Assembly (NCBI GenBank): GCA_902635455.1
Contig: CACPNW010000006.1
Location: 961 to 64,960, forward strand
Reading direction: 5' to 3'
Source of the DNA: an uncultured Alphaproteobacteria bacterium
GTDB lineage: Bacteria; Pseudomonadota; Alphaproteobacteria; HIMB59; GCA-002718135
Length of the DNA stretch: 64,000 bases
Shown here piece by piece: positions 39,038 to 61,486 of this stretch (position 1 is the first letter of the stretch; each line of letters begins with the position of its first letter). A program made the position numbers and the translations under genes. Below the pieces are notes generated by a model. It saw nothing but the letters and a program-made list of their open reading frames with translations, did not search any database and was not told the DNA's origin.

Positions 39038-39181
39038 ATGAAGCAAAAGTATAAATATTTTTTTATTTTGTATATTTTTATGCTCTTCTTATTAAGCTGC
39101 AATAATAATCAAAATATAAAAGGTAAGAAGGGTGACTTTTCTTTTAGAAAATGTACAAATTGTGAAATATTAGATGATTAA
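39038..39181 (+). CDS. Putative 47-aa small lipoprotein (not in ORF track)
   Basis: MKQKYKYFFILYIFMLFLLSC lipobox signal, C-terminal CTNC; stop codon directly abuts aguA ATG. Confidence 0.55.
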   Translation: MKQKYKYFFILYIFMLFLLSCNNNQNIKGKKGDFSFRKCTNCEILDD

Positions 39182-42682: not shown

Positions 42683-42741
42683 ATAAATTTTATATGAAAA
42701 ATTTAATTGAATGTCTATGTATTTAAATTTAAGTGTTATTT

Positions 42742-44300: not shown

Positions 44301-45413
44301 ATGCCTAAATATGATTTAGCTAAAAAAATTGTTAACGGGGAATTATCTCGTAGACAAATGATTAAAGCACTAGGAGCGGCGGGAGTGATCACTTCACTTT
44401 CACCTCTTGTAGCAAAATCTGCATTCGCAAAGGAACAGGTTGGTCTGTTTACTTGGGGTGGGTATGATGATGATGGTCTTTACAGTGGTTATATAAATAA
44501 ACACGGTGGAGCACCTGAATATACAACATTTGGAGATGCAGAAGAAGGCCTGCAAAAATTAAGAGCAGGTTATGTAACAGATGTTATACATCCTTGTTAC
44601 TCAGATCCACCAAGATGGCAAAGAGCTGGTGTTATTCAGCCTATTGACACAAGTAGGCTTGCAAGCTGGGGAGATCTTTTCCCACAATTAACTGGAATGG
44701 GTTCTGTTAATTTTGATGGTGCACAATGGATGGCTCCTGTTGATTGGGGAGATACTTCTTTAATTTATAATCCAGACAAAGTTAATTGGATGAGTCCCGG
44801 AAATGAAAGTTTAGGTCTGTTATTTGATGATCGTATGGAAGGTAAAGTAGCTATATTAGATTCAGCTGCGGACTCTTGGTACTTAGTTGCTATTTATCAT
44901 GGCATTGATGTAACTAGAATGGAGCATGTTACAAAAGCTCAAGTTGATAGTGTTTATGAAGCATTAAGAAAAATGAGAAAAAATGTTAAAATTTATACTA
45001 CTGATACAGCAACTCTAGAACAAGCTTTATTGGATGAAGAAGTATGGTGTGCTCTTGCTTGGAATGAGTCATCTTGGAATACAGGTTTTCCTATGATGAG
45101 TCCGAAAGAAGGTACTTTAACTTGGTCTTGTGGGCTAGTTATTCATAAAGACGCTCCAAATTTAGATTTAGCTTATGATCTAATTGAAGCATCTATAAGT
45201 GCTGAAACTTCAGAATATTTATTAAATGAATGGGGATATGGTCACTCTAACAAAAAGGGATATGAAACTATATCTGCAGAAGCTCTAGCTGAAAGAGGTT
45301 TAGCTCCTGATCCTATTGCGCATTTAGAAGGTGGTAATTTTAGCAACAATCCAACTGATGAAATTACTGATTATATTGAAATGCAATGGGCAGAATTTAC
45401 TGCTGGCGGTTAA
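44301..45413 (+). CDS. Polyamine ABC transporter substrate-binding protein (PotD/PotF-like) with Tat signal
   Basis: SRRQMIK twin-arginine signal ending AFA; FTW.GY, P.DWG, PKEG...W. Confidence 0.85.
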   Translation: MPKYDLAKKIVNGELSRRQMIKALGAAGVITSLSPLVAKSAFAKEQVGLFTWGGYDDDGLYSGYINKHGGAPEYTTFGDAEEGLQKLRAGYVTDVIHPCYSDPPRWQRAGVIQPIDTSRLASWGDLFPQLTGMGSVNFDGAQWMAPVDWGDTSLIYNPDKVNWMSPGNESLGLLFDDRMEGKVAILDSAADSWYLVAIYHGIDVTRMEHVTKAQVDSVYEALRKMRKNVKIYTTDTATLEQALLDEEVWCALAWNESSWNTGFPMMSPKEGTLTWSCGLVIHKDAPNLDLAYDLIEASISAETSEYLLNEWGYGHSNKKGYETISAEALAERGLAPDPIAHLEGGNFSNNPTDEITDYIEMQWAEFTAGG

Positions 45414-45433: not shown

Positions 45434-45467
45434 TGACCCGTAATTTTATTACGGGTCATTTTTTTTT
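45434..45467. terminator. Hairpin terminator between convergent SBP and ABC ATPase genes
   Basis: TGACCCGTAAT-TTT-ATTACGGGTCA followed by a T tract; overlaps the ATPase stop codon. Confidence 0.8.
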
Positions 45468-46540
45468 ATAACACGTATATCTTTTAAATTAATATTTAAG
45501 TAACAATCAGAATTTATTGATAACCCTTGTAAACTTTCTGCGGTTGATAACATAAGTGCTTTATCTACTCCTTCTATACTTACATATACATATGTTAAAT
45601 TCCCATAAAATGAAGTATTTGTAATTTTACCCTTAACTTGAATATCGGATTTTTTATTATCATTTGAGCTAATGTTTATTGACTTAGGTCTTATACCGGT
45701 AACAATAGTATCGTTTTGATTAATAATTGTATGTGCTTGTATTGTATATTCACCTATTCCATTAATTAAAACTTTTACATTCTTGCCATCAATATTAGAA
45801 ATTTCAGAGTTTAATAAATTTATGTCTCCTATGAAATCTCCTACAAATAAATTTACAGGAAAATCATATAATTCTCTAGGTGGTGAAACTTGTAAAATTT
45901 TTCCTTGATTCATTACTGCCACCCTATCAGACATGGTCATTGCCTCTTCCTGATCGTGAGTAACAAAAACAAAAGTTATTCCTACACTTCTTTGTAAGTT
46001 TCTTAACTCTATTTGCATCTCTTCTCTTAATTTCTTATCTAATGCTCCTAATGGCTCATCCAGTAATAAAACTTTAGGCCTTTTGACAAGTGCTCTAGCT
46101 AAAGCAACTCTTTGTCGCTGACCACCTGAAAGTTGGTTAGAAAATCTATTTTCATAACCTTCTAATTTTACCATTTTAAGAGCTTCACTTACTCTTTGAT
46201 TCACTTCTTCAGCAGAAATTTTTTCTTTCCTTAAACCAAACTCTATATTTCTTTTTACATTTATATGAGGAAATATAGCATAGTTTTGAAATACCATATT
46301 AGTTGGCCTTAAATTTGCTGGAATATCAGTTACATCAGAGCCATCAATTGAAACTGAACCTTCTGATGGATATTCAAACCCTGCTAAAATTCTTAACAAA
46401 GTAGTTTTTCCACAACCTGAAGGCCCTAAAAGAGAGAAAAATTCACCCTTTCCAATGTTTATATTAACATTATCTACTGCAACCACATCGTCAAAATTTT
46501 TTGACAGATTGTTTATTTTTATAAAATTCTTATCATCCAT
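45449..46540 (-). CDS. potA: Polyamine ABC transporter ATPase
   Basis: GPSGCGKTT, LSGGQRQR, LLLDEPLGALD, VTHDQEEA, C-terminal TOBE-like region. Confidence 0.87.
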   Translation of the reverse strand: MDDKNFIKINNLSKNFDDVVAVDNVNINIGKGEFFSLLGPSGCGKTTLLRILAGFEYPSEGSVSIDGSDVTDIPANLRPTNMVFQNYAIFPHINVKRNIEFGLRKEKISAEEVNQRVSEALKMVKLEGYENRFSNQLSGGQRQRVALARALVKRPKVLLLDEPLGALDKKLREEMQIELRNLQRSVGITFVFVTHDQEEAMTMSDRVAVMNQGKILQVSPPRELYDFPVNLFVGDFIGDINLLNSEISNIDGKNVKVLINGIGEYTIQAHTIINQNDTIVTGIRPKSINISSNDNKKSDIQVKGKITNTSFYGNLTYVYVSIEGVDKALMLSTAESLQGLSINSDCYLNINLKDIRVIKKNDP

Positions 46541-47352
46541 TATATTCCACCTATTTTACTTTTCTTACCAGAAGGGTTGCCTAAATTCCTTAACCAATAA
46601 GATATTATAACTAACAATGAAGTAACCACAATAATTACTGCCCCTAATGCCAAAACATGAGGTAATTTTTTTGGAAAACGCATTTGTCCCCACATATACA
46701 TAGGTAGTGTTTGATCTGATGAGGATAAGAAAAAAGCAAGAATAAATTCATCAAATGAAATTACAAATGATAATAATAAAGATGCTATAACTGCTGGTAA
46801 AACAAGAGGAAAAGTTACACGCCAAAAAGTTCCCCAAGCATTTTCTCCTAAATCCATTGCTGCTTCTTCTAAGTTTTTATCAAAGCCCTCCATTCTTGAA
46901 ATTAAAATTAATAAACAAAAAGGAGTGCAAAATAAAATATGCGAAATAGTTACTGGAACCAAACCTAATTGAAAACCCATTCCAGTCCAAATTACAATTA
47001 AAGCTACTGCAATAATAATTTCAGGAATAACAAAAGGAAGTAAAATTGCTCCATATGATAATTGATGAAATCTAACTTTATATCTTGTAAATGCTTTAGC
47101 AGCTAACAATGCAATAAAAGTACTAAAAACAGATGCTACCAATCCAACTTTTATACTATTCATCAAAGCTTTATGTAGTCTGCTAGAATGAATCATTTGA
47201 TCATACCATTTAAACGTAAAACCCTTAAGCGGAAAAACCATATGAATAGCATCATTAAAAGAAAAAATAGGTAACAGCATCACTGGTATATATAAAAAAG
47301 CAAAATAAATTATTGAATATAAAAGTAATGTATTATTTTTTTTATACATCAA
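46540..47352 (-). CDS. potC: Polyamine ABC transporter permease
   Basis: FLYIP....FSFN, GFT.KWY, LEEAAMDLG, SFDEF. Confidence 0.85.
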   Translation of the reverse strand: MMYKKNNTLLLYSIIYFAFLYIPVMLLPIFSFNDAIHMVFPLKGFTFKWYDQMIHSSRLHKALMNSIKVGLVASVFSTFIALLAAKAFTRYKVRFHQLSYGAILLPFVIPEIIIAVALIVIWTGMGFQLGLVPVTISHILFCTPFCLLILISRMEGFDKNLEEAAMDLGENAWGTFWRVTFPLVLPAVIASLLLSFVISFDEFILAFFLSSSDQTLPMYMWGQMRFPKKLPHVLALGAVIIVVTSLLVIISYWLRNLGNPSGKKSKIGGI

Positions 47353-48233
47353 GACATCCTTAAACTTACTTTTTTTGTTATATAAGTGACAACTAATGCG
47401 ACAAAGCTAACAGACAATAACATTAATACAGCTGAAGCTGCGCCTAAAGGAAAGTTATTAGCTCTTCCAAATAGACTTTGAATCATGTTAGACAACATCC
47501 TTCCATCAGTCCCTCCTACTAGTTGTGGTGTTACATAATCACCTACTGTTGGAATAAAAATAATTAGTATAGCTCCTATTACTCCAGGCAATGAAAGTGG
47601 GAAAGTAACCCTCCAAAAAGTTTGAAATTTTGAACATCCTAAATCATAAGAAGCCTCTAAAAGTGATTTATCAATTTTATCTAAAGATACATAAAGTGGT
47701 AATATCGCAAATGCAGCCCAAGCATGAGCTAAAGTCAAAACTACAGCAGTTTGACTATAAATTAAGAAACTTAAAGGCTCATCTATTGCGCCAGAAAACA
47801 TTAGAGCAGAATTTATAACACCTTTGTGTCCTAAAATTACTCTCCAAGAAAATACTCTTAACAAATAACTCGTCCAAAATGGTAATGTCATTAGTACGAT
47901 CCAAAGCATTTTATTTTTCTTTACGTAAAAAGCAATATAATAAGCTAAAGGATAGGTAGTTAATAAAGTTACCAAAGTTACTAAAAAAGAAATCTTAATA
48001 GAGCGAAATAATAAAGTTGAATAAACAGGTCTGCTAAAGAAATCAGCATATCTGTCTAGAGTTAAGGTGCTATCTATTTCCATCATACTAACTTGTGTAT
48101 GAAAACTTGTTAAAACCATTAAAAGTAATGGCGAAGCCATTGCTAAAATAACTAGAATTAAAGCTGGAGATAGTAAAGTATAAGCCCTTATACTTTCATG
48201 TTTTGAAAATAATTTTCTCCATGTATTTATCAT
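47349..48233 (-). CDS. potB: Polyamine ABC transporter permease
   Basis: PFWTSYLLRVFSW, LLEASYDLG, FIPTVGDYVTP.LVGG. Confidence 0.85.
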   Translation of the reverse strand: MINTWRKLFSKHESIRAYTLLSPALILVILAMASPLLLMVLTSFHTQVSMMEIDSTLTLDRYADFFSRPVYSTLLFRSIKISFLVTLVTLLTTYPLAYYIAFYVKKNKMLWIVLMTLPFWTSYLLRVFSWRVILGHKGVINSALMFSGAIDEPLSFLIYSQTAVVLTLAHAWAAFAILPLYVSLDKIDKSLLEASYDLGCSKFQTFWRVTFPLSLPGVIGAILIIFIPTVGDYVTPQLVGGTDGRMLSNMIQSLFGRANNFPLGAASAVLMLLSVSFVALVVTYITKKVSLRMS

Positions 48234-48252: not shown

Positions 48253-49431
48253 TTATTCAATTAAGGATTGCAAACCCCTTTTATAAAGAGAATTTGCAAT
48301 AATTATTCTATGAATTTCACTTGTTCCTTCCCAAATACGATCAACACGAAGTTCTCTATAATATCTCTCAGCAACATTGTCTCTCATATATCCTCTGCCT
48401 CCAAAAATTTGAACAGATCTATCAGCTACTCTATTAGCCATTTCAGACGCCATTAGTTTAATCATAGAACATTTTCCATGTAAAATTTTGACATCTTGTT
48501 TTGCATCATGTGCTTTGCATATTTCGTACAACATTAATCTAGTAGAAGCCAGTTCATTTACACTATCGGCAAGCATGAACTGTATTGCTTGATAATTTGC
48601 AATTTTATCACCAAATGAAACTCTTTCTTTTGCAAACTCTGTAACTTCATCAATAAGCCTTTCAGCTGCTCCACAACATCTTGCTGCTATACCTAATCTT
48701 TCATGTCTGAACCAAGAGTGAGTAAAATCCATACCCATGCCTTCATTTCCTATAATATTTTTTTCAGCTACAGACACATTATTAAATCGATAAATACTAT
48801 GATGATGAGCATATGTATGGCTAAACTTAGGAGTGTCAATTAATTCAATACCTTCAACATTTTTATCAATTATGAAAAGTGCATTTTTATCTTTATTTGG
48901 CCCTGATTTAATTTTAGCTTGCAAAAAGAAAAAGTCAGCTAAGTTTGCACTTGTTACATACCATTTTTCTCCATTAATTATATATTGGTCTCCTTTTTTT
49001 TCTGCCGTTGTTTCAATTGATCCTTCTACATCAGATCCTGCACCCTTTTCTGTGATTGCATAACATTCTTTTTTTATACCTTTTAAGAGGGGTTGAAGAT
49101 AATGTTCTTTTTGGTAATCATTAAAATTCTCTTCCATCCAATCCTGAGCTTCAGAAAAACACCAGCATAAAGCATTAGTAACCCTACCTAATTGTTCCCA
49201 TATTATCATTTGTTCAAACATAGTTAATCCTAAGCCACCGCTTTCTTTTGTTATGCCCATACCTGGCAATCCGAAAGAAATTGCAATTTCACGATGTTTT
49301 TTTTCAATATCTTTTGGAAGCTCACCTTCATTTTTTTCTGCATGAACTTCCCAGGGAATAAGTTCATCATTTACAAATTTTTTTATTTTTATCTTCCATT
49401 CAAGAGCTTTAGGTGTCATTCCACTATACAT
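48253..49431 (-). CDS. Acyl-CoA dehydrogenase family protein
   Basis: AITE..AGSD, NGEKWY, Q.IQFMLAD, QIFGGRGY, RIWEGTSEI. Confidence 0.92.
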   Translation of the reverse strand: MYSGMTPKALEWKIKIKKFVNDELIPWEVHAEKNEGELPKDIEKKHREIAISFGLPGMGITKESGGLGLTMFEQMIIWEQLGRVTNALCWCFSEAQDWMEENFNDYQKEHYLQPLLKGIKKECYAITEKGAGSDVEGSIETTAEKKGDQYIINGEKWYVTSANLADFFFLQAKIKSGPNKDKNALFIIDKNVEGIELIDTPKFSHTYAHHHSIYRFNNVSVAEKNIIGNEGMGMDFTHSWFRHERLGIAARCCGAAERLIDEVTEFAKERVSFGDKIANYQAIQFMLADSVNELASTRLMLYEICKAHDAKQDVKILHGKCSMIKLMASEMANRVADRSVQIFGGRGYMRDNVAERYYRELRVDRIWEGTSEIHRIIIANSLYKRGLQSLIE

Positions 49432-49434: not shown

Positions 49435-50058
49435 TTATAATATTCCTTTAAATTGTTTTGGAAAATTTGATTTAACAAATTCAAAACAAATTTTCTTTGA
49501 TTGCGTTCTATTAAAAGTATCAGGATCTTCTAACTGATCTAACCACAAACCCATTATTAAAGCTTGAAATCCTCTAGCTACATTTTTTTTTGATAATTTA
49601 TTTTTTTCTTTTTTTATTAAATCTGTAAATATATTTTCAGTTACACTTTGATAGTACAAGTCTCTTTCTTTACATATTTGATGATAAGCAGGTTTATACT
49701 TTATTTCACTAAAGAAAGTAAACCAAACTGCAATTTTTTCTCTAGTGCATATTTTTTTACTAAAATCATTTTCTATAATTCCTATTATTTTTTTTCTTGG
49801 ATCATTACCTGATTTAGAAATACTTTTTTGAAATGAGTGAAGATATTCATTTGAAATAAACTTTAGGGTTTCAATTAATAATATTTCCTTACTTTTGAAA
49901 TGAAAATTAACAATACCTTGAGATAGTCCTGCCCCCTGTGACACATCCTGCATTGTTAATTCATTTATCCCTTTTTTAGATAAATTTTTAATAGTAGATG
50001 AAATTAATTTTAAATTACTATTTTTTTTGTTTTCTAATCTAAGATTTCGCTGCTTCAT
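49435..50058 (-). CDS. TetR family regulator, BetI-like
   Basis: HTH TMQDVSQGAGLSQGIVNFHFKSKE; BetI-type C-terminus (W..F..E, ALIMGLWL). Confidence 0.85.
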   Translation of the reverse strand: MKQRNLRLENKKNSNLKLISSTIKNLSKKGINELTMQDVSQGAGLSQGIVNFHFKSKEILLIETLKFISNEYLHSFQKSISKSGNDPRKKIIGIIENDFSKKICTREKIAVWFTFFSEIKYKPAYHQICKERDLYYQSVTENIFTDLIKKEKNKLSKKNVARGFQALIMGLWLDQLEDPDTFNRTQSKKICFEFVKSNFPKQFKGIL

Positions 50059-50116: not shown

Positions 50117-50132
50117 TTGAATGGTCATTCAA
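50117..50132. promoter_or_regulatory. Perfect palindromic operator TTGAATG-GT-CATTCAA (putative TetR site)
   Basis: Located in the divergent region between TetR and the flavoprotein operon; near-identical copies at 37630 and 58451. Confidence 0.78.
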
Positions 50133-50150: not shown

Positions 50151-51779
50151 ATGAACAAAGCTAAATATGATGTTGCTATAATTGGAGGCGGTCACAATGG
50201 GTTAACTACAGCATGTTATTTAGCCAAAGCCGGCCTTAAAGTGGTTGTTGTAGAAAGACATGATTATGTTGGAGGCGCTGCTGTAAGTAGAGAGCTTCAT
50301 CCAGGCTGGACATATTCTAACTGTTCTTATGTTTGTAGCTTATTGCGACCTGAAATTTTTAGAGATTTAGAATTGTCAAAGCATGGTTTACAAATTATTC
50401 CTTATGAAGGTAGTGCTAGTATGCTTGATGATGGAAGATTTTACGCACATTATCAAGACCATGATTTAACATACCGTTCTATTGCTCAATTTTCAAAAAA
50501 AGATGCTGAAGCTTATGATAGATTTGGAAAAGATGTCATGAGGCAATGTAAAATCATTAAACCTCTTTTAAAATTGACTCCTCCTGATCCAACATCTTTT
50601 AAACCAAAAGACATAATGGGCTTATTTGAATTTGCTAAATATTTTGCTGCTAAAGATGAATTAGGCGGATTAGGAGAAAAAGAAATTTATGACACCATTA
50701 GATTCTGGACAATGAGTGTTAGAGACTATCTCGAAGAATATTTTGAGTCAGATATAGTAAAGGTTCATTTAGCAGGTTCGGCTATTATTGGAACGGCACT
50801 TGGTCCTTACTCACCTGGTTCAGCATACGTATTATTACATCATTATATGGGAGAAGTTGATGGCACTGTAGGAGCTTGGGGTTATTCAAGAGGAGGAATG
50901 GGTTCAATCACAAAAGCTATGGCATCATCTTTTAAATCAAAAAATGGAGAGATTAAAGCTGGCTCACCAGTTACTAAAATTCTCATTAAGAATAATAAAA
51001 GTTATGGTCTTGTTCTCGAAAATGGTGATGAAATTTATGCTGATAAAATAGTTTCAAATCTTGATGTAAAAAGAACTTTTTTAAAAGTTGTTGAAGAAAA
51101 AGAATTACCTAGTGATTTTTATAGAGCTGTAAAAAATTTTAAAATTCGAGGATCTTCAGGAAAATTAAATATTGCGCTTGATGATCTTCCTGTTTGGAAA
51201 AGTATTCCAATTGGCGATCCTGCAGGAACCGGTGATTTGCACATAACACAGAACATTGAAGAGATGGAGGGCGCTTATGATGATTGGAAAGATGGTAAAT
51301 GGTCTCAATTTCCTTATGTTGATATGTGTATTCCTAGTATTAATGATCCAACAATGGCACCTCAAGGAAAACATTATATGTCAGTTTTCATTCAATATGT
51401 GCCATATAATTTAGCAGATGGAGGGTGGACTGAAGAAAAGCGTAAAGAGTTTGGGAAACATGTAATGGAAAGAATTGGAAATTACTCAACAAACTTCAAA
51501 GATATCATCAATCACGCAGAAATTAGAACTCCTAAAGAATTAGAAGCAGAAGTTGGTTTAACTGAAGGTAATATATTTCAAGGTGAATTAACAATGGATC
51601 AACTAATGTTTAATCGTCCTGTGCCTGGCTATGCTCAATACAAAACACCTATAAAAAACCTATACATGTGTGGTTCTAGTACGCATCCTGGTGGAGGTGT
51701 TATGGGAGCACCTGGGGCAAATGCAGCAAGAGAAATATTAAAAGATTTAAATAAGAAAATGTCAACGCATTACATATGA
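50151..51779 (+). CDS. Phytoene desaturase-like (PYROXD2-like) FAD oxidoreductase, subunit 1
   Basis: GGGHNGL..A.YLA, VGGAA, CSLLRP, GGMG, GNIFQG, LYMCGSSTHPGGGVMG; likely start MNKAKY at 50151. Confidence 0.85.
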   Translation: MNKAKYDVAIIGGGHNGLTTACYLAKAGLKVVVVERHDYVGGAAVSRELHPGWTYSNCSYVCSLLRPEIFRDLELSKHGLQIIPYEGSASMLDDGRFYAHYQDHDLTYRSIAQFSKKDAEAYDRFGKDVMRQCKIIKPLLKLTPPDPTSFKPKDIMGLFEFAKYFAAKDELGGLGEKEIYDTIRFWTMSVRDYLEEYFESDIVKVHLAGSAIIGTALGPYSPGSAYVLLHHYMGEVDGTVGAWGYSRGGMGSITKAMASSFKSKNGEIKAGSPVTKILIKNNKSYGLVLENGDEIYADKIVSNLDVKRTFLKVVEEKELPSDFYRAVKNFKIRGSSGKLNIALDDLPVWKSIPIGDPAGTGDLHITQNIEEMEGAYDDWKDGKWSQFPYVDMCIPSINDPTMAPQGKHYMSVFIQYVPYNLADGGWTEEKRKEFGKHVMERIGNYSTNFKDIINHAEIRTPKELEAEVGLTEGNIFQGELTMDQLMFNRPVPGYAQYKTPIKNLYMCGSSTHPGGGVMGAPGANAAREILKDLNKKMSTHYI

Positions 51780-53242
51780 AAAACTTTGATGTCATAATAA
51801 TTGGGGCAGGTCACAATGGTTTAGCCGCTGCCTCTTATCTTTCAAAAAAAGGTAAGAAAGTTTTAGTGGTTGAAAAAAATCAAAATGTTGGAGGTTTGGC
51901 AGAATATTCAGATTCACTGAATTGTGTCTCTCCGATAATTAAAAAAGAATTAAATATTAATGTGACTAATGTTGATAAGACAACTCACATTGTATCGCTT
52001 GAAGACAACCAAAACCATACTGTTCTAGAAGATAATAATGGCAAATTATCTTTTTTAAAAACTAATGCTGAAGAAGAAGATCAGCAAAAATTCTTGTCAA
52101 TTATTAACAACTACAAATTATTTTCAAAAACTCTTGGTTCGTTTATGTTTCAACAACCACCAAGAGTTAAATCAGGTAAAAAATCTGACTTATTTCAATT
52201 AATTTCAATGGGATGGAAAATTAGGAAATTAGGTAAAAAAAATATGCGCGAACTGCTTAGAATAATAGGTTTAAATATAGCGGATGATTTAGAGGATAAT
52301 TTAAGCAATAATAACTTAATGGGTTTGCTATCCCATGAAGCGGTTTTGGGAACAAACTTAGGACCAAGATCTCCAGGCTCTATATTAACTTTACTATATA
52401 AACAAGCCACCAATAACAATATTTTTAATTTAAAAAAAATAGAGGTTGCAGAATATATTAAGCAATTAGAAGATTGCTGTAATAAAAATATGGTCGAAAT
52501 TATTAAATCATCTGAAGTAAAAAAAATATTAACTCAAAATAACTCAGTTACTGGTGTTCAATTAACAAATGGAGAGGTTTTTGAATCAAAATATTTAATG
52601 TCTAATGCTGACCCTAAGACAACTTACTTAAATTTATTAGGTGCAGAAATTTTAGATACTGATTTTATTAGAAGAGTGAAAAATTTTAGAAATAAAGGGA
52701 ATGTCGCTAAACTTGAGTTAGTATTAGAAAATGAAATTAATATTAATAATATTGATAAAAATATGTATGGAAAATTTATTTATGCACCAAATATTAAATA
52801 CATCGAACATGCATTTAATGCCAATAAATATAACAAATACTCTGATAATCCATGTCTCGAGTTTTACGTTAATCAAAATACCATATCAGCTAATGTTTAT
52901 TATGTTCCATATTTGCTAAACTCTCATCATGAAGAAAATAAAATTATTAAAAGATGTGTGTCAATTTTAAGTAAATTTATTCCAGAAATGAAAATTGCAA
53001 AACAAGAACTCACTACTCCTAATAAAATGGAAGAAAAATTTAATATAGGGGGTGGGCATTGGCATCACGGTGATTTAGAAATAGATCAATTATTAATGAT
53101 GAGACCTTTTTATGGATCATCTCAATATTCCACACCTATAAATGGCTTGTATTTATGTAGTGCAGGTACTCATCCCGGAGGGGGGTTAACTGGTATCAAT
53201 GGTCTTAATGCTGCTAAAAAAGTTATAGAGGAATTAAAATAA
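51776..53242 (+). CDS. Phytoene desaturase-like FAD oxidoreductase, divergent subunit 2
   Basis: GAGHNGL, GGHWHHG, LYLCSAGTHPGGGLTG; ATGA overlap with subunit 1. Confidence 0.82.
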   Translation: MKNFDVIIIGAGHNGLAAASYLSKKGKKVLVVEKNQNVGGLAEYSDSLNCVSPIIKKELNINVTNVDKTTHIVSLEDNQNHTVLEDNNGKLSFLKTNAEEEDQQKFLSIINNYKLFSKTLGSFMFQQPPRVKSGKKSDLFQLISMGWKIRKLGKKNMRELLRIIGLNIADDLEDNLSNNNLMGLLSHEAVLGTNLGPRSPGSILTLLYKQATNNNIFNLKKIEVAEYIKQLEDCCNKNMVEIIKSSEVKKILTQNNSVTGVQLTNGEVFESKYLMSNADPKTTYLNLLGAEILDTDFIRRVKNFRNKGNVAKLELVLENEININNIDKNMYGKFIYAPNIKYIEHAFNANKYNKYSDNPCLEFYVNQNTISANVYYVPYLLNSHHEENKIIKRCVSILSKFIPEMKIAKQELTTPNKMEEKFNIGGGHWHHGDLEIDQLLMMRPFYGSSQYSTPINGLYLCSAGTHPGGGLTGINGLNAAKKVIEELK

Positions 53243-54444
53243 TGAATACAACAAAAATATCATACAAAAAACCTCTTTTAGAAACACCTTTTCACGAAAG
53301 AACATCAGAGCATTGTTATTCAAATGATTGGTATCGATGGGCTGGATATAAAGTAGCAAAAGAATATTCATCAACAGAACTTGAATATACTTCGATGAGA
53401 AATACAGCTGGAGTAATAGATATTACTCCTATGCATAAATATGATATTAAAGGTGAGGATGCTAAAAATTTTATTAATAAATTAATTACAAAAGACATTT
53501 CTAATATTCAATCTAATCAAGTTGCTTACGGCATATGGTGCAATGAAGATGGAATGGTAATTGATGATGGAACAATATTTTGCTTTAATGAAAATCATTT
53601 TAGAATTTTTTGTGCTGAACGTAATCTAAATTGGTTTTCTGATACAGGAACTGGATTTAATGTAACTATTGAAGATATAAGTTCTTCAATTGCAGCTTTA
53701 GCCTTCCAAGGCCCTTTATCTTGTAAGATTTTAAATTTATTACAAGTAAAAAACATAGAAAACCTAAAACCATTTCATTTTGATAGTTATAAAATTGAAC
53801 ATCATAATGTTATAATTTCCAGAACAGGTTTTTCTGGAGACTTAGGTTATGAAATATGGTGTGATCCTTCTCAAGCCATTGATGTATGGGATAATTTATT
53901 TAAATTTAACAGAGATTATAAAGTACTCGCAGCTGGAATGAATGCACTTGATATGGTGAGAATTGAAGCAGGATTTATCCAACCAAATGCAGATTTTATG
54001 TCTGCAGAACAAGCTTTAAGACCAAATAGAATGAGAAACCCGTATGAATTAGGTTTAGGTTGGTTAGTAAATCTAGATAAAGAGTATTTTACTGGGAAAC
54101 AGGCTTTAATTAGACACAAAGAAAAAGGGCCTGAAAAAAAACTTGTAGGATTGGATGTTGAGGGAGATAAGCCTGCTGTTGGATCTGTCCTCTATGATAA
54201 TAGTAAGAAAAATATAGCCAAAGAAATTGGTATAGTGACAGCAGCAATGTGGTCCCCAGTTCTTAAATCTAATATTGCAATTGGATTTGTTAACAAAGAA
54301 TATTATAAGTTAGGATCTAATGTTTATGCCGAAATTTACCATCCAGAAGAATTGGATTATAGAAAAATTTGGGCTGAATGCAAAGTGGTAAAAAAGCAAT
54401 TTTTTAACAATCCAAGAAGGAATGCTATACCTGCATTTATATAG
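53242..54444 (+). CDS. GcvT/DmdA-family aminomethyltransferase (THF-binding)
   Basis: L..TPFH.R, D.TPM.K..I.G, DG..IDDGT, QGP, SRTGFSG.LGYE, RIEAG. Confidence 0.87.
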   Translation: MNTTKISYKKPLLETPFHERTSEHCYSNDWYRWAGYKVAKEYSSTELEYTSMRNTAGVIDITPMHKYDIKGEDAKNFINKLITKDISNIQSNQVAYGIWCNEDGMVIDDGTIFCFNENHFRIFCAERNLNWFSDTGTGFNVTIEDISSSIAALAFQGPLSCKILNLLQVKNIENLKPFHFDSYKIEHHNVIISRTGFSGDLGYEIWCDPSQAIDVWDNLFKFNRDYKVLAAGMNALDMVRIEAGFIQPNADFMSAEQALRPNRMRNPYELGLGWLVNLDKEYFTGKQALIRHKEKGPEKKLVGLDVEGDKPAVGSVLYDNSKKNIAKEIGIVTAAMWSPVLKSNIAIGFVNKEYYKLGSNVYAEIYHPEELDYRKIWAECKVVKKQFFNNPRRNAIPAFI

Positions 54445-54456: not shown

Positions 54457-55608
54457 ATGGAATTTAATCTTTCAGAAGAACAGAATCTTTTAATAAATAC
54501 TACTAAATCATTCGTAAAAGCAGAATTATTGCAACATGAAGAACTATTAGAAAAAACAAATAATTTACCAAAAGAATTGTATGATGAAATTAAGAAAAAA
54601 AGTATTGAAGCAGGATTATATGCTTGCAATATGCCAACTGAACATGGTGGTGGTGGCTTAAATGCTTTTGATTTAACCTTGGTTGAAAAACATCTTGGAT
54701 TTGCATCACTTGCTTTAGCAGAAATTGCTTGGAGACCACAAAATATCTTAATGGCCTGCGAAGGTGAACTAGTAGATGAATACTTAAAACCGACTATTAC
54801 AGGAGAGAGAAAAGATTGTATTGCTATGACTGAACCTGGCGCTGGTTCAGATTTAAGAGGTATGAAAACGAAAGCAGTTAAAGATGGCAATGATTGGATT
54901 ATCAATGGAACAAAACATTTTATATCTAATGCTCACATCTCTGACTTTGTTGTTCTTTTTGCTTCAACAGGTGAAGATGATAAAGGTAGAAATTTACTTT
55001 CTTGTTTTTTAGTTGATTTAAAACAAAAAGGAGTTGAAGTTGCTAAAGGATATGACTGTGTCTCTCACAGAGGATATGTAAATAATATTATACATTTTAA
55101 TGATTGTAGAATTCCTGGAAAAAATATTCTTGGAGAAAAAGATAAGGGTTTTGAATTAATGAATGTTTGGTTGGAAGCTACTAGATTAACTGTAGCAGCT
55201 ACTTCCGTTTCTAGAGCGGAAAGAGCTTTTGATATAGCATTAGATTGGTCTGCAAATAGAAAGCAATTTGGTAAAGTCATTGGTAAATTTCAAGGTGTTT
55301 CATTTAAATTAGCTGATATGGCAACAGAAATTAAGCTAGCAAATTTAATGTTAATGGAATCAGCCTGGAAAATTGATCAAAACACATTAACATCTCAGGA
55401 TGCTGCTATGACAAAATTATTCTGCACAGAAATGGTTGGTAGAGTTTCAGATGAAGCAATTCAAATTTGTGGTGGAATGGGTTTAATGTCAGATATCCCT
55501 CTTGAAAGAATATGGCGAGATGCAAGAATAGAAAGAATTTGGGAAGGAACAAGTGAAATTCAGCGTCATATTATTTCACGTTCTCTTCTAAGACCACTTG
55601 GAGCGTAA
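54457..55608 (+). CDS. Acyl-CoA dehydrogenase (butyrobetainyl-CoA dehydrogenase-like)
   Basis: AMTEPGAGSD, NGTKHFIS, FQGVSFKLADM, RIWEGTSEIQR; upstream of CoA ligase and caiD. Confidence 0.88.
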   Translation: MEFNLSEEQNLLINTTKSFVKAELLQHEELLEKTNNLPKELYDEIKKKSIEAGLYACNMPTEHGGGGLNAFDLTLVEKHLGFASLALAEIAWRPQNILMACEGELVDEYLKPTITGERKDCIAMTEPGAGSDLRGMKTKAVKDGNDWIINGTKHFISNAHISDFVVLFASTGEDDKGRNLLSCFLVDLKQKGVEVAKGYDCVSHRGYVNNIIHFNDCRIPGKNILGEKDKGFELMNVWLEATRLTVAATSVSRAERAFDIALDWSANRKQFGKVIGKFQGVSFKLADMATEIKLANLMLMESAWKIDQNTLTSQDAAMTKLFCTEMVGRVSDEAIQICGGMGLMSDIPLERIWRDARIERIWEGTSEIQRHIISRSLLRPLGA

Positions 55609-55611: not shown

Positions 55612-57648
55612 TTGAATTTAAAAAAACTTTTTAGGCCAAAAAGCCTCGCTTTAATTGGAGGATATTGGGCTGATTTTGTTTACGATGGTAACAAAACTAT
55701 TGGTTACAAAGGTAAAGTTTGGCATATTAATCCTTCAAGACAAAGTTCCAAGACAAAAAAATATTATAAAAATATTAGAGACCTCCCAGAAGTTCCAGAT
55801 TGTGTTTATCTTGCTGTTTCAAGCGACCAAACAGTTAAATTAATTAAAGATATTTCTGATTTAGGTGTTGGAGGAACAGTATGCTTAGCCTCAAGATTTT
55901 CTGAACTTAATTCTAAAGAAGGAAAAGACAAAACTACTAAGCTAATTAGAAATGCAGGTAAAATGCCTTTTTTAGGACCAAATTGCTATGGATTTATAAA
56001 CTACCTAGATAAAATTTCTGTATGGTCAGATCAAGTTGCGGGCATGCCAGTTAAAAAAGGTGTCGCTATTATTTGTCAAAGTGGAACAATTGGCAACACT
56101 ATAAGCTTCAACAATAGATCATTGCCAATTGGTTACATTATTTCACTGGGTAATCAGGCACAAATAACTATAGAAGATGCTATTAACTATGTTCTTGAAG
56201 ATAAAAGAGTGACTGCGATTGGAATTTATGCTGAAAGTTTTACAAATTCAGAAAAATTAGTCACAGCCTTTAGAAAATCAAGATTAAAAAAAATACCTAT
56301 AGCTCTAGTTAAAGTAGGAAGATCTAAAATTGCCTCTAAAACAATTCTTACACATACCGGTTCACTAAGTGGAAAAGAAAATATTTATGATTCTTTGTTT
56401 AAAAGAATGGGCGTCACTCGATGCAATACATTAGGAGAATTATGTGAAATATTGAAATTATTTCATACTCATGGAGTTTTAAAAAATAATAAAATATCAA
56501 TCATGGGACCTTCGGGTGGTGATATGGCTATGATAGGAGATGTTGCGGAAAGATTAAATTTAAACTTTGAAAAAATACCTACAAAAATAAAAGCTAAATT
56601 GAAAAAAGTTAATCACCCAAGTGTAATAATTTCTAACCCATTTGATTTACAAACATATAATTGGAATGATCCTGATGACTTAGAAAAAACATTTAAACTT
56701 ATGTTTAAAACAAATTTTGGAATAAATGCACTAATGTTAGATTTTCCAAATATTGAAGATTGTGATACTAAGGAATGGGATGCAATTGTTGATAAATTTA
56801 TTAAATCTTCTAAAGTCAAAAAAAACGGTGCTATTATTTCCTCACTATCAGATACTTTACCAAAATATTTGAGAGATAAATGTCTTAAGTCTGGAGTAGT
56901 GCCTCTTCAAGGCATGTATGAAGGATTACTAGCAATTAGTAATTCAATTAAGGTTGCAAAAGCATGGAAAAATATTTCTGAAATAAAAATACCAAAAACT
57001 ATATCTAAATTTAAAAAGAAAATAAAAACTTATTCTGAATACGAATCAAAAATAATTTTAAAAAAATATGGAGTACCTATACCAAAGTCTTTAATCACAA
57101 ATAAACAAAATCTATTACGTGATTACAAAAAAATAGGATTCCCTTTAGTAGCAAAAATTAATTCTAATAATATCTTTCATAAAACAGAAATAAATGGAGT
57201 TTTTACAAATATTAATAATGAAAAAGAATTAAGACAAAAAACAAGAAAATTAAAAGGAAGTATATTGTTAGAAAAAATGATTACAAATCCTGTTTTTGAA
57301 ATAATTATAGGAATAAAAAACGACAATGAATTCGGACCCACTATAATTATAGGTGCTGGTGGAATATACACAGAATTATTTAAAGATACGACTACTCTTC
57401 TTTTACCTTTAAATAAAAAAATTATTTTAGAAGAAATAAAAAAACTAAAATTTGGAAAAATATTATTAGGTTTTAGAGGAAAACAAGGTGCTGATTTAAG
57501 TGCCCTTGTTAGTGCAATAATAAAAGTCTCTAAATTTGCTGAAAAAAATTCTGATAAAATTTCAGAAGTTGATATAAATCCACTAATAGTTTGCAAAAAA
57601 GGCAAAGGTGTATTTGCCGTTGATGCATTAATACATTACTTTGATTAA
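55612..57648 (+). CDS. ADP-forming acyl-CoA synthetase (fused alpha/beta)
   Basis: LF.PKS.A, GPNCYG, QSG, SLGNQ, HTGSL phospho-His, ATP-grasp HKTE, E.DINP. Confidence 0.88.
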   Translation: MNLKKLFRPKSLALIGGYWADFVYDGNKTIGYKGKVWHINPSRQSSKTKKYYKNIRDLPEVPDCVYLAVSSDQTVKLIKDISDLGVGGTVCLASRFSELNSKEGKDKTTKLIRNAGKMPFLGPNCYGFINYLDKISVWSDQVAGMPVKKGVAIICQSGTIGNTISFNNRSLPIGYIISLGNQAQITIEDAINYVLEDKRVTAIGIYAESFTNSEKLVTAFRKSRLKKIPIALVKVGRSKIASKTILTHTGSLSGKENIYDSLFKRMGVTRCNTLGELCEILKLFHTHGVLKNNKISIMGPSGGDMAMIGDVAERLNLNFEKIPTKIKAKLKKVNHPSVIISNPFDLQTYNWNDPDDLEKTFKLMFKTNFGINALMLDFPNIEDCDTKEWDAIVDKFIKSSKVKKNGAIISSLSDTLPKYLRDKCLKSGVVPLQGMYEGLLAISNSIKVAKAWKNISEIKIPKTISKFKKKIKTYSEYESKIILKKYGVPIPKSLITNKQNLLRDYKKIGFPLVAKINSNNIFHKTEINGVFTNINNEKELRQKTRKLKGSILLEKMITNPVFEIIIGIKNDNEFGPTIIIGAGGIYTELFKDTTTLLLPLNKKIILEEIKKLKFGKILLGFRGKQGADLSALVSAIIKVSKFAEKNSDKISEVDINPLIVCKKGKGVFAVDALIHYFD

Positions 57649-57656: not shown

Positions 57657-58433
57657 ATGGAAAATCCAATTAAAACAAAAATTGAAGGATCAATCTTAGA
57701 AGTTACAATTGATCGACCAAAAGCAAATGCAATAGATGCTAAAACAAGCATTATCTTAGGCGATGTATTTGCTGACTTTAGAGATAATCCGAAACTAAAA
57801 GTAGCTATAGTAACGGGTGCAGGCGAAAAATTTTTTTCTGCAGGATGGGATTTGAAAGCTGTAAATGAAGGAGAAGAAGCAGATACAGATTATGGTGTAG
57901 GTGGATTTGGAGGATTACAAGAATTACCAAATATGAACAAGCCTATTATTGCTGCTGTAAATGGAATAGCATGTGGTGGTGGTTTTGAAATTATGATTTC
58001 TACAGATATTATAATCGCTGCTGAGCATTCTACATTTGCACTACCTGAAATTAATGTTGGAGTTGTGGCAGATGCTGCTACAATTAAATTACGACGACGT
58101 ATACCATATCACGTAGCTGTCGAGTTCTTAATGACTGGAAGGTGGATGGATGTAAAAGAGGCAAAGCACTGGGGTTTAGTTAATGAAATAGTTAATAAAA
58201 ATAACTTATTAAAAAGAGCTTGGGAGATAGCTACTAAAATTTCAAATGGCCCTAATTTAATTTATTCTTCCATAAAAGAAGTTCTAAGAGAAACTGAAAA
58301 TGAAAAAGAGATACCTTCATTTAAAGTTTTAAGATCATTGGAAAGTGTTAAAAAAGTATATGGAAGCGAAGATTTGAAAGAAGGAGCCTCATCATTTGTT
58401 AAAAAAACTGATCCTAATTGGAAAGATAAATAA
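57657..58433 (+). CDS. caiD: Carnitinyl-CoA dehydratase / crotonobetainyl-CoA hydratase
   Basis: DRPKANAIDAKTS, FFSAGWDLKA, DYGVGGFGG, GGGFE, FALPE. Confidence 0.85.
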   Translation: MENPIKTKIEGSILEVTIDRPKANAIDAKTSIILGDVFADFRDNPKLKVAIVTGAGEKFFSAGWDLKAVNEGEEADTDYGVGGFGGLQELPNMNKPIIAAVNGIACGGGFEIMISTDIIIAAEHSTFALPEINVGVVADAATIKLRRRIPYHVAVEFLMTGRWMDVKEAKHWGLVNEIVNKNNLLKRAWEIATKISNGPNLIYSSIKEVLRETENEKEIPSFKVLRSLESVKKVYGSEDLKEGASSFVKKTDPNWKDK

Positions 58434-58450: not shown

Positions 58451-58479
58451 TTGAATGAGCATTCAGCGAATGTTACTAT
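58451..58479 (+). promoter_or_regulatory. Operator TTGAATG-AG-CATTCAG overlapping promoter TTGAAT-N17-TACTAT
   Basis: Operator 58451-58466; -10 at 58474-58479; ATG at 58486. Confidence 0.72.
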
Positions 58480-58485: not shown

Positions 58486-59862
58486 ATGAAAAACGATTAT
58501 ATTAGTGAAATTCATAAAAAAGACAAATTGGTTTTACACCCATATGAAGATATGGAAAGTAGGGGAACATATGATCGAAAACTCATTGTAAATTCTGATA
58601 ATATTTACCTATATGATGAAAATGGTAAGGAATATATTGATGGACCAGGTGGTATGTGGTGTAACAATATAGGTCATGGAAATAAAGAAATAGGTGAAGC
58701 TGTTAAAATACAACTTGAAAAAATGGAATATTGTAGTCCTTTTTCAGAATCCAGTGAAATTTCTGCTGAACTAGCCTCTGTTTTATCAGAGCTATCTCCT
58801 GGAGATCTAAATACAGTCTTCTTCACAACAGATGGTTCTACAGCCAACGATACCGCTCTTCGATTCATTATGTTTTATAACAACATATTAGGCCGACCTA
58901 ATAAAAAACATTTTATTACTAGAGATAAAGCTTATCATGGAAGCACATATCTAACAGGTTCAATAACAGGAAAAGATAGAGAAAAAAATAATTTTGATTT
59001 TGAAAAAAATTTTATTCACCATTTAAGCTCACCGCTTCCCTACAGAAGAAAAGATAATCAAACAATTGAAGAATTTTGTGATGAACTAGTAAAGGAATTT
59101 GAAGATAAAATAATAGAACTAGGATCAGAAAATGTTGCCGCCTTTATTGCTGAACCAGTTATGGCTTCTGGCGGATGTATTGTACCACCAGATGGATATT
59201 TAAAAAGAATTTGGCAAATATGTAAAAAGTACGATGTTTTATATATATCTGATGAAGTTGTTACAGGATTTGGAAGAATGGGTCATTTTTTTTCATCTAA
59301 AGAAGTTTTTGACGTAGTTCCAGATATAATAACTTGCGCAAAGGGTATTACTTCAGGATATATGCCGTTAGGAGCTGTTTTGTTTTCTGACAAACTTCTT
59401 AGTGACATAAAAAAAGAATCTGCTCTTTTTTTTCATGGATACACTTATTCAGGGCATCCAGCATGTTGTGCAGCTGCATTAAAAAATATTGAAATTATTA
59501 AACGCGATAAAATCCTTCAACATGTCAAAGAAATAGAGCCATATTTTCATGAAAAATTAAAAAATTTGTATGAATTACCAATTGTTGGTGATGTAAGAGG
59601 CAAAGGATTAATGGCGGGAATAGAATGCGTAATAAATAAAGACAGTAAAGAAGCACTAATACTAGATAAGGCTATAGGATCTAGAATTGATGAAGAATCA
59701 ATAAAATTAGGATTAATTATTCGTCCATTATATCATATTTGTGTTTTATCCCCTGCATTAATAATTACAAAATCACAAATCGATACACTTGTTGAAAAAT
59801 TATATACTGCAATTCAAAATTCTCTTAAACAACTTGAGGTAGAAGGTCTTTGGAAAGACTAA
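58486..59862 (+). CDS. Class III (omega-amino/polyamine) aminotransferase
   Basis: DG..G.WC, YHGST, FIAEPV, DEVVTGFGR, AKG.TSGY PLP lysine, HGYTYSGHP. Confidence 0.9.
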   Translation: MKNDYISEIHKKDKLVLHPYEDMESRGTYDRKLIVNSDNIYLYDENGKEYIDGPGGMWCNNIGHGNKEIGEAVKIQLEKMEYCSPFSESSEISAELASVLSELSPGDLNTVFFTTDGSTANDTALRFIMFYNNILGRPNKKHFITRDKAYHGSTYLTGSITGKDREKNNFDFEKNFIHHLSSPLPYRRKDNQTIEEFCDELVKEFEDKIIELGSENVAAFIAEPVMASGGCIVPPDGYLKRIWQICKKYDVLYISDEVVTGFGRMGHFFSSKEVFDVVPDIITCAKGITSGYMPLGAVLFSDKLLSDIKKESALFFHGYTYSGHPACCAAALKNIEIIKRDKILQHVKEIEPYFHEKLKNLYELPIVGDVRGKGLMAGIECVINKDSKEALILDKAIGSRIDEESIKLGLIIRPLYHICVLSPALIITKSQIDTLVEKLYTAIQNSLKQLEVEGLWKD

Positions 59863-61059: not shown

Positions 61060-61486
61060 AGCAAAAAAAGGAAATGTTAAAGAAGTGGGATTTCTTTTTG
61101 ATTTGTACAGACAGTTTTATAAATATAAACCTGAACTAAAAAAATCAACCAAATATATTAAAGAAAGAATATCAAAAAAAGAGTCTACTATTTTTTTATG
61201 TTACTGTGAAAATGTTCCTGCTGGTTTTGTTCAGCTTTATGAAACATTCGACTCTCTAAATGTTAACAAGAAATTAGTTTTATATGATTTATATGTAAAG
61301 AAAGAATTTAGAAAAAATGGAATAGGTAAATCCTTAATGAATGTAGCTAAGAAATTTGGGCATAAAAAAAAGATAAAATTAATAGAATTATCAACTGCTA
61401 TAAAAAACAAGAAAGCTCAATCATTATACGAATCTCTTGAATATAAACGAGATAAGGAATATTATAGTTATTATCTTGAATTATAA
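61040..61486 (+). CDS. GNAT N-acetyltransferase (polyamine acetyltransferase-like)
   Basis: LFD.YRQFY, GFVQLY, DLYV...R..GIG, N..AQ.LYE. Confidence 0.85.
   Translation: MKIKIIKAKKGNVKEVGFLFDLYRQFYKYKPELKKSTKYIKERISKKESTIFLCYCENVPAGFVQLYETFDSLNVNKKLVLYDLYVKKEFRKNGIGKSLMNVAKKFGHKKKIKLIELSTAIKNKKAQSLYESLEYKRDKEYYSYYLEL

Follow-up and report, generated by a model that had tools for sequence, protein, structure and literature searches.

We examined a stretch of 64,000 nucleotides (hereafter the window) that is part of contig C6 of an uncultured alphaproteobacterium, whose assembled genome comprises 1.14 Mb and is 68% complete. Relatives of the window DNA in public collections are Pelagibacterales. 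The subject of this analysis is a set of three adjacent genes, hereafter the trio, encoding two paralogous flavoproteins (FlvA and FlvB) and a protein resembling GcvT, the T-protein. The G+C content is 26-36% across the 20 kb surrounding the trio. We scanned 54 open reading frames (ORFs) of the window for protein families (Pfam, NCBIfam). The trio and its control region consist of the following elements.

50151..51779, plus strand: FlvA, a PYROXD2/CrtO-like flavin adenine dinucleotide (FAD) protein of 542 amino acids (aa), called from Pfam, NCBIfam and homologue lengths; alternative ATG at 50121
51776..53242, plus strand: FlvB, a fast-evolving paralogue of 488 aa with a GGHWHHG motif, called from ORF, Pfam, NCBIfam and alignment
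53242..54444, plus strand: GcvT-like protein of 400 aa, predicted to bind folate (PF01571, PF08669, NCBIfam)
50117..50132, unstranded: exact palindrome TTGAATGGTCATTCAA (TTGAATG-NN-CATTCAA), a putative TetR operator in the divergent tetR/flvA control region
49435..50058, minus strand: BetI-type TetR regulator, first gene of a leftward unit (PF13977 50.1 bits, PF00440)

An earlier reading of the letters of the window (the original prediction) had described three translationally coupled genes, and this is confirmed: the ORFs share a strand and overlap through ATGA at 51776-51779 (FlvA/FlvB) and TAATG at 53240-53244 (FlvB/GcvT-like). For FlvA, we preferred the start at 50151 over that at 50121 because most of the 120 best homologues listed have 542 aa, and because the ATG at 50121 falls within the conserved palindrome. 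The description of a conserved flavoprotein next to a shorter, divergent paralogue was also right, as the two proteins are 29% identical over 533 columns. FlvA matches PF01593 with 64.1 bits over residues 27-539, above the gathering score of 19.8. FlvB collects 31.7 bits in total for this family, yet no single stretch passes, and its other Pfam matches are of the Rossmann type. The DAO family (PF01266) covers merely the Rossmann start of each protein (residues 17-64 of FlvA, 5-39 of FlvB), and neither has the full-length DAO domain found in dimethylglycine dehydrogenase (DMGDH), sarcosine dehydrogenase (SARDH) or the sarcosine oxidase beta subunit. We aligned 25 sequences of each flavoprotein (for FlvA, the window protein and 24 partners). 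FlvA is 46-71% identical to these partners, with a mean column identity of 66%. In FlvB, the dinucleotide-binding glycines (GxGxxG), the ribose-binding Glu33 and a C-terminal HPG are invariant.

The predicted model of FlvB (predicted local distance difference test, pLDDT, 85.2; predicted template modelling score, pTM, 0.86) is nearest in fold to the carotenoid desaturase 4rep, with a template modelling score (TM) of 0.71, followed by NicA2, pseudooxynicotine amine oxidase, monoamine oxidase (MAO) and putrescine oxidase (TM 0.55-0.62). Among solved structures we found no close relative of FlvA; the best for its profile is CrtI (4dgk, 102 bits). Four runs of marine RNA libraries gave only short contigs on the trio stretch, from which transcript structure is unreadable and in which DNA carry-over is possible. 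Among them, a contig of 157 nt on flvB and one of 149 nt on the GcvT-like gene show no difference from the window, a 535-nt contig on flvA shows 2, and a 154-nt contig that spans the junction of the GcvT-like gene with the following acyl-CoA dehydrogenase gene (ACAD1) shows 3. Parts of the stretch without such contigs carry no information.

To study the trio beyond the window, we searched a collection of species genomes with a profile of FlvB relatives, retained the best 80 loci (L011-L090) of at least 592 confirmed relatives, and placed the window proteins on them by tblastn. Since these loci were picked by likeness to FlvB and kin among them are non-independent, the numbers that follow are counts and not statistics. 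An adjacent pair of flavoprotein genes is present in 70 of the 80 loci, and 64 of these pair loci have a GcvT homologue (at least 33% identity) within 600 bp. It lies downstream on the same strand in 40 (including L041, with a one-base overlap), upstream and divergent in 22 (the Acidobacteria-type layout), and upstream on the same strand in 2. Three further pair loci have such a homologue elsewhere in the locus, and in L070 a homologue with 30% identity lies 162 bp downstream. Contig ends truncate two of the 70 pair loci; all 68 others (68/68) have a GcvT-family gene. The remaining 10 loci show a single flavoprotein match. Six of them are truncated by contig ends, and none of the four assessable ones has a GcvT gene. 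By their record titles, the 80 loci span Alpha- and Gammaproteobacteria, Bacteroidota, Acidobacteriota, Gemmatimonadota, Actinomycetota, Dormibacterota and others. The gene-neighbourhood survey proposed with the original prediction thus finds the trio conserved together across phyla, well beyond what chance would give.

We built a flavoprotein tree with FastTree (Shimodaira-Hasegawa-like support) from 68 rows, i.e., 32 of the 80 loci, the window, two animal proteins and two outgroups, and a tree of the GcvT-like proteins in the same way. The former contains clades of B-type proteins (support 100), proteobacterial A-type proteins (100), Acidobacteria-type A proteins (99) and four single-copy proteins (99). 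The end branch of the window's FlvB measures 0.92, against 0.23 for its FlvA. In the latter, the GcvT-like proteins of the trio form one clade (support 98), apart from 10 other ORFs with a GCV_T domain in the genome. The A, B and GcvT-like trees show the same subgroups. This mirroring indicates that the three genes have been inherited together, and that their co-travel predates the divergence of the phyla. Within the order, the pair is an accessory trait, being found in 26 of 187 species genomes: 25 of the 115 genomes of the window's family have it, and none of the 71 in the one large genus of the other family does. A Pseudomonadales metagenome-assembled genome (L029) carries, at 7124-19160, two complete trios, one ordered A-B-T and the other B-A-T, and in addition a third GcvT-like gene that is more distant. 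The double trio suggests paralogous trios with different substrates.

What might the flavoproteins be? The automatic names of relatives ('phytoene dehydrogenase-like') would make them carotenoid enzymes such as CrtI, CrtO or CrtD, and the best NCBIfam model of both is indeed CrtO (NF045689). Its cut-off is 1000 bits, and FlvA and FlvB reach 288.5 and 131.9. For crtI_fam (TIGR02734, cut-off 238.1 bits), they reach 113.3 and 68.5. With scores so far under the cut-offs, neither qualifies as a CrtI or a CrtO. The statement that no carotenoid genes are nearby was borne out, as none occurs among the 54 scanned ORFs of the window; none surfaced in the 80 loci by likeness to the window's proteins, and none was seen among 27 recurrent neighbour clusters scanned with Pfam. 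Cut-offs and context effectively refute a carotenoid enzyme, to which we assign a negligible probability. The NCBI names for the trio genes are only 'NAD(P)/FAD-dependent oxidoreductase' and 'aminomethyltransferase family protein', and those of a 91%-identical homologue are 'PYROXD2...' and 'phytoene desaturase family'.

The likeness to PYROXD2 belongs to one of the two proteins. Aligned over 597 columns, FlvA and an annotated bird PYROXD2 isoform have 32% identity (E 7e-101); FlvB reaches 96 bits only. In the alignment, the motifs YVLLHH.MGE..G..GAWG and GNIF.G are common to FlvA and the animal PYROXD2 proteins and absent from FlvB, and B-type proteins carry GGHWHHG at the place of GNIF.G. 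Conversely, the RGSSGKLN motif of FlvA is missing from PYROXD2. In the tree, PYROXD2 stands in a polytomy with A-like clades and joins an extra bacterial copy (L021) at support 88. Hence, of the two PYROXD2-like flavoproteins announced by the original prediction, FlvA keeps the description and FlvB loses it; as a statement about motifs and subfamily the term holds for FlvA, and it is not a claim of orthology. We know of no FlvB-type partner of PYROXD2. Single-copy FlvA-like genes occur in L075, L077, L081 and L089 (Acidobacteriota, Methylomirabilota), where they form their own clade, and no paralogue or GcvT gene is present within the fetched flanks. These single-copy proteins may, like PYROXD2, work without partners. 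In the results given in PMC13352909, the human PYROXD2 locus is associated with trimethylamine and, jointly with the acetyltransferase gene NAT8, with N2-acetyl,N6,N6-dimethyllysine. The link to NAT8 is paralleled by GNAT acetyltransferase genes that recur beside the bacterial trio.

The characterised heterodimers of the wider family are the limonene dehydrogenase CtmAB and the delta-24 sterol desaturase. As described in the relevant passages of PMC11061730, their two paralogous subunits are encoded side by side, as are FlvA and FlvB. Catalysis is discussed there for one subunit, and electron transfer or a structural role for the other. The same passages report hydrocarbon substrates and, in both subunits, covalent flavin mononucleotide (FMN) on a His motif (G-F-L/R-X-N/S-T/L-H-A), and name no folate partner. 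These enzymes invite the view that FlvAB desaturates or hydroxylates a carbon chain, such as a butyrobetaine- or acyl-CoA-type intermediate, and that the GcvT-like protein acts independently. Such chemistry is what the heterodimers are known for in that paper, acyl-CoA genes follow the trio in the window, and a carotenoid desaturase is the best structural match of FlvB. However, the covalent-FMN motif is present in neither protein. At its place FlvA has G-W-T-Y-S-N-C-S and FlvB a deletion, in a register set by eye and without the CtmAB sequence. Moreover, CoA genes accompany the trio in 9 of the 80 loci, against 69 of 80 for GcvT. We therefore regard carbon-chain oxidation as very improbable. 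A covalent flavin at Cys58 of FlvA was also considered and dropped, as the bird PYROXD2 has Ala at that place.

The third protein has the GCV_T folate-binding fold, with 193.3 bits for PF01571 and 40.9 bits for PF08669. It is not a GcvT proper by the models for that protein, scoring 193.1 bits against a cut-off of 235.85 for TIGR00528 and 234.5 against 300 for NF001567. Among NCBIfam models, it scores best with the C-terminal half of the trimethylamine N-oxide (TMAO) demethylase Tdm (254.6 bits over model positions 387-734, far below the cut-off of 1100). The role of this folate domain in Tdm, to capture formaldehyde on tetrahydrofolate (THF), is one we liken to that of the GcvT-like protein. 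The catalytic half differs, being a metal-dependent N-terminal domain in Tdm, whereas the trio has flavoproteins instead. The VIDDG of the GcvT-like protein aligns to the IIDD of the Thermotoga T-protein (1woo), which contains Asp96, presumably the catalytic residue. The SRTGFSGDLGYE motif (SRTG.(T/S)G region, SRTGYTGE type) is kept, and DMGDH-type chains (4p9s, 1pj5) emerge among the sequence relatives. The Pfam scan of the trio operon found no gcvH or gcvP. The genome holds 12 ORFs with a GCV_T domain, including a separate canonical gcvT on contig C1 (291.2 bits). Four others, two with about 818 aa and two with about 990 aa, are of a size compatible with the classical fused types (DMGDH/SARDH, SoxA). 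The genome also encodes FolD, the alpha subunit of the electron-transfer flavoprotein (ETF-alpha) and formate-THF ligase. The T-protein motifs, the Tdm domain as best model and the presence of PurU as a neighbour in 10 of the 80 loci support the proposal that this protein would capture a one-carbon unit on THF.

The folate protein might instead be a methyltransferase of the DmdA/LigM type that moves the methyl group of an onium compound, such as a betaine, to THF, giving 5-methyl-THF, with FlvAB re-oxidising this compound, a tertiary N-methyl amine, to methylene-THF. Demethylases of the GcvT family that make 5-methyl-THF and require a dedicated oxidising partner are reported in the part of PMC11868366 that deals with them, and the operon of the window handles quaternary-amine-like substrates. 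Three observations make this quite unlikely. The protein scores higher with the models of T-protein (234.5 bits) and TMAO demethylase (254.6) than with those of DmdA (155.7) and LigM (66.5), the Asp motif of the T-protein is retained, and quaternary amines are already served by Rieske oxygenases similar to GbcA in 26 of the 80 loci.

The logic we propose for the trio, oxidation of an N-methyl group by a flavin with transfer of the carbon to THF by a domain of the GcvT fold, is that of dimethylglycine dehydrogenase/oxidase, sarcosine dehydrogenase and 4-methylaminobutyrate oxidase. In DMGDH-type enzymes, a flavin domain of the DAO/GR2 type is fused to the folate domain in one chain, whereas the trio has two proteins of the CrtI/amine-oxidase fold and a free folate protein. 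Heterotetrameric sarcosine oxidase (SoxBDAG) and N-methylglutamate dehydrogenase resemble the trio in being multi-subunit flavoenzymes whose folate domain sits on a non-catalytic large subunit. They belong to other flavoprotein families, and the trio has no delta or gamma subunit. Two separate ORFs of about 990 aa in the genome match the length of SoxA. PurU is a typical neighbour of sox clusters. The histone demethylase LSD1/KDM1, a flavoenzyme of the amine-oxidase fold, releases N-methyl groups as formaldehyde and reportedly binds THF; unlike the trio, it acts on a protein substrate, as a single chain and with no T-protein partner.

To ask if the three proteins associate, we looked at fused chains and at a predicted complex. 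Two flavoprotein modules are joined in one chain in six proteins of 904-1064 aa, three of them from contigs of 168-576 kb. One singleton protein fuses a GcvT domain to an A-like module. Another, P0277 (1298 aa, a metagenome singleton), joins a FlvA-like module (5-431) to a Rieske oxygenase alpha subunit (560-898) and, if real, would be a fusion of two proposed consecutive demethylation steps. The prediction of FlvA with FAD and the GcvT-like protein scored 0.49 (runs of 0.09, 0.49 and 0.52), against 0.00 for the best of three controls, with a contact agreement between runs of at least 66% and a partner pLDDT of at least 85. Of 80 solved complexes, 58 pass the mark for this score, as do 2 of 110 mismatched pairs. 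Among the passes, 7 of the 80 solved complexes and both mismatches score 0.60 or less, and our own alignments and the riding FAD make the calibration only rough. The complex expected by the original prediction therefore receives a weak pass in the case of FlvA and the GcvT-like protein, with one run far below the others. For FlvA and FlvB, the mirrored trees, the double-module chains and the heterodimeric relatives (CtmAB, delta-24 desaturase) lead us to infer a heterodimer.

The palindrome in the divergent control region recurs in the window, and the genes that it adjoins elsewhere are of interest for the function of the trio.

58451..58466, unstranded: second operator-like palindrome, 1 mismatch, between the hydratase and aminotransferase genes
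37630-37645, unstranded: third operator-like palindrome, 1 mismatch, between the GbcA-like Rieske and DAO genes, 12 kb off
36377-37645, minus strand: GbcA-like Rieske oxygenase (GbcA model 335 bits, cut-off 670; likely ATG at 37609)
37665-39005, plus strand: DAO-family flavoprotein (window ORF scan)

The window has three sites with at most one mismatch, all in promoter-like gaps. The expected number is 0.05, and a count of three was never attained in 100 shuffles. Genome-wide there are four such sites; the fourth (contig C26) lies within an ORF of 733 aa and was taken as chance. The exact palindrome occupies the corresponding position in three relatives and in a gene cluster on a Shinella plasmid, where it adjoins the trio. 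Weaker copies occur in L093 (2 mismatches, same place as the second site) and in L011, and the Parasedimentitalea plasmid locus has no operator-like site. The BetI-type TetR regulator probably binds the palindrome as its operator; the protein scores 105.3 bits with the BetI model TIGR03384 and stays below the cut-off of 201.3. The shared occurrence of the palindrome suggests that the Rieske/DAO pair and the trio are tied into one regulon for stepwise N-demethylation.

The genes on either side of the control region are the following, ACAD0 and ACAD1 being acyl-CoA dehydrogenases.

48253-49431, minus strand: ACAD0 (Pfam, NCBIfam)
47349-48233, 46540-47352 and 45449-46540, minus strand: PotB, PotC and PotA of a Pot-type ABC importer (potA subfamily TIGR01187, 376.7 bits, above its cut-off of 355.6)
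44301..45413, plus strand: PotD/PotF-like solute-binding protein (PF13416; PotD model 65.6 bits, far under its cut-off)
54457-55608, plus strand: ACAD1
55612-57648, plus strand: NDP-forming acyl-CoA synthetase
57657-58433, plus strand: CaiD-like enoyl-CoA hydratase
58486-59862, plus strand: class III aminotransferase of the omega-amine:pyruvate type (passes NF005447, 660.8 bits over a cut-off of 618)
59872-61059, plus strand: MFS transporter (Pfam, NCBIfam)
61040-61486, plus strand: GNAT acetyltransferase (Pfam, NCBIfam)
61492-62061, plus strand: small HD protein, distantly PhnZ-like (PhnZ the only solved relative, 28 bits over about 45 residues)
62063-62530, minus strand: thioesterase
62574-63464, plus strand: BKACE protein (PF05853, 321.4 bits)
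63474 onward, past the window end (64000): carnitine-dehydrogenase-like gene (L-carnitine dehydrogenase the best model)

The leftward unit (tetR, ACAD0, potB/C/A) is compact, its genes being 0-19 bases apart. Three same-genus genomes share the complete gene order, beginning with the binding protein and ending with the carnitine-dehydrogenase-like gene, and ACAD1, the synthetase and the hydratase are retained at 68-94% identity in three relatives. The original prediction placed the trio at the head of an operon with butyrobetaine/carnitine CoA enzymes. The position stands, and so does the likeness at the family level. The closer assignment does not, as the hydratase reaches 290.3 bits with its best model (crotonobetainyl-CoA hydratase, cut-off 500) and the carnitine-dehydrogenase-like gene 336 bits with that of L-carnitine dehydrogenase (cut-off 414). 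Hence, 'butyrobetaine/carnitine-like' is meant at the family level only, from these scores and from the pathways of Sinorhizobium and Pseudomonas. The Arctic SAR11 carnitine island, in the description available from PMC12421898, has a different gene set. Homologues of the HD protein, 49-61% identical, are located at the margins of four loci of the Steroidobacteraceae type (L013-L016). A phosphonate function was rejected for this protein, a likeness to PhnZ over about 45 residues being too little.

The 80 loci also tell which other functions accompany the trio. The most frequent are GbcA-like Rieske oxygenases (26 loci), PotA-like proteins (24), BetI-type TetR regulators (21), PuuC-like aldehyde dehydrogenases (19) and class III aminotransferases of two kinds (15 and 11), followed by proteins similar to glutamine synthetase (GS; 10), PurU (counted above), NDP-forming acyl-CoA synthetases (9) and DAO proteins (7). 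In L011 (Pelagibacterales), the operon has the order flvA-flvB-gcvT-aminotransferase-Rieske-DAO-potBCA. On two plasmids of cultured strains, pW43C of Parasedimentitalea marina (L091) and p1 of Shinella zoogloeoides (L092), the trio adjoins genes of the N-demethylase type, which encode a Stc4/DgcA-type NADH:flavin oxidoreductase of 680 aa and several Rieske oxygenases. The P. marina locus additionally has a gene of the histone-deacetylase family (acetylpolyamine amidohydrolase type) and a BKACE gene. In the window itself, a block for polyamine/amine catabolism at 33618-44217, next to the island just described, comprises the GbcA-like Rieske oxygenase, two DAO genes, two GS-like genes of the gamma-glutamylation type, an agmatine deiminase, an N-carbamoylputrescine amidase-type hydrolase and an amidase. 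Elsewhere in the window, a second PAD_porph gene (agmatine-deiminase type, 18583-19704) lies amid molybdenum-cofactor genes (moaA-like 16190-17182, mog-like 19757-20503). An AcrB-type transporter is present as two overlapping ORFs (4988-6457 and 6246-8381, model positions 2-437 and 513-1015), possibly a frameshift, an assembly error or a split gene.

Many of these neighbours recall polyamine metabolism. FlvAB could be an oxidase or dehydrogenase of polyamines or secondary amines and cleave a C-N bond other than one to a methyl group. It would follow the logic of SSAT/PAOX back-conversion in animals, with the GNAT protein as the acetylating partner and the GcvT-like protein serving another one-carbon step or aldehyde detoxification. 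The Pot-type importer lies on the common control region, PotA-like, PuuC-like and GS-like (gamma-glutamyl-polyamine type) genes recur in the counts given above, as do GNAT genes, and the amine block with its agmatine deiminase, CN-hydrolase, GS-like and DAO genes is just upstream. The solved relatives of the aminotransferase, headed by the unnamed aminotransferase 3i5t, include putrescine, polyamine and GABA transaminases, and the model fold of FlvB matches putrescine oxidase and MAO. Yet this explanation leaves the near-obligate GcvT partner and the PurU neighbour unaccounted for, and the T-protein fold is established to capture one-carbon units only. We consider it unlikely. The polyamine oxidase, the 5-methyl-THF oxidase and the oxidation of C-H bonds each fit some of the neighbours and explain the near-obligate T-protein partner less well.

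From the observed gene anatomy, conservation, motifs and common palindrome we infer amine chemistry and a folate hand-over, and we propose, with slightly better than even confidence, that the trio is a folate-coupled oxidative N-demethylase for tertiary or secondary methylamines. The TetR-controlled regulon would comprise the trio, the polyamine-type importer, the Rieske, DAO and aminotransferase genes and the butyrobetaine/carnitine-like CoA module. The importer would take up a trimethylammonio compound or a methylated amine, and the GbcA-like Rieske oxygenase would strip the first methyl group of a quaternary amine. This step would have to come first because a flavin cannot oxidise a quaternary nitrogen. 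FlvA and FlvB would then act as a two-subunit flavoenzyme of the CrtI/amine-oxidase fold that abstracts a hydride from the N-methyl group of a tertiary and/or secondary amine, with FlvA, the slowly evolving PYROXD2-like subunit, as the probable catalyst and FlvB probably as electron carrier or scaffold. The free-standing GcvT-like protein would move the iminium or formaldehyde unit onto THF, giving 5,10-methylene-THF, whose carbon FolD and formate-THF ligase would oxidise. The DAO enzyme may remove the last methyl group, and the omega-aminotransferase would turn the remaining primary amine into a carbonyl. The pathway would thus run from trimethylammonio to dimethyl, monomethyl, primary amine and carbonyl compounds, mirroring the route from glycine betaine via dimethylglycine and sarcosine to glycine with another flavoprotein fold. 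Candidate substrates are demethylated butyrobetaine-type betaines, N6-methyl-lysines, methylated di- or polyamines and dimethylamine; for the latter, SAR11 lacks dmmDABC, according to the section of PMC5520151 concerned.

Several points weigh against this proposal. The characterised relatives of the flavoprotein branch in PMC11061730, at least in the passages concerned (CrtI, CtmAB, delta-24 sterol desaturase), oxidise hydrocarbon C-H bonds and not amines. In place of the Arg in the GARD motif of T-proteins, the GcvT-like protein carries Leu; the same ALD-for-ARD substitution is found in Tdm. The trio is not needed for dimethylglycine or sarcosine because the genome has GCV_T ORFs of classical length. 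The five fused forms that we looked up are the sole members of their clusters and may be frameshift artefacts. One of the three complex runs for FlvA and the GcvT-like protein reached a score of 0.09 only, and a weak pass is more often wrong than right in the absence of a strong prior. Finally, the neighbours vary by lineage, with CoA genes in some, polyamine genes in others and amino-acid permeases in Acidobacteria, and therefore no single substrate can be deduced.

The coupling of a flavin N-demethylase to a folate acceptor of the T-protein fold follows a known logic. We have not found in print its realisation with a CrtI/PYROXD2-type pair and a free-standing folate protein, and no description of the trio was found in the full-text literature, a search whose coverage largely leaves out subscription journals and supplements. 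A more far-reaching idea, which we put forward tentatively and hold to be possible but rather doubtful, is that FlvA-type proteins, including human PYROXD2, are dehydrogenases of tertiary or secondary N-methyl amines and that folate-coupled N-demethylation arose independently in the trio, next to the DAO-fused and sarcosine-oxidase types. The trio of SAR11-type cells would then handle the dimethyl and monomethyl products of the Rieske enzyme, similar to butyrobetaine, methyl-lysine or methylated polyamines, and perhaps dimethylamine. The shared operator offers a cheap route to the substrate, i.e., the ligand that frees the TetR regulator. If the proposal is true, two genes named 'phytoene dehydrogenase' followed by an 'aminomethyltransferase' would mark a widespread and unstudied route for stripping N-methyl groups in ocean and soil bacteria. 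It would add a new step to the marine turnover of methylated amines and of carnitine and betaines, and would provide testable substrates for the human orphan enzyme PYROXD2.

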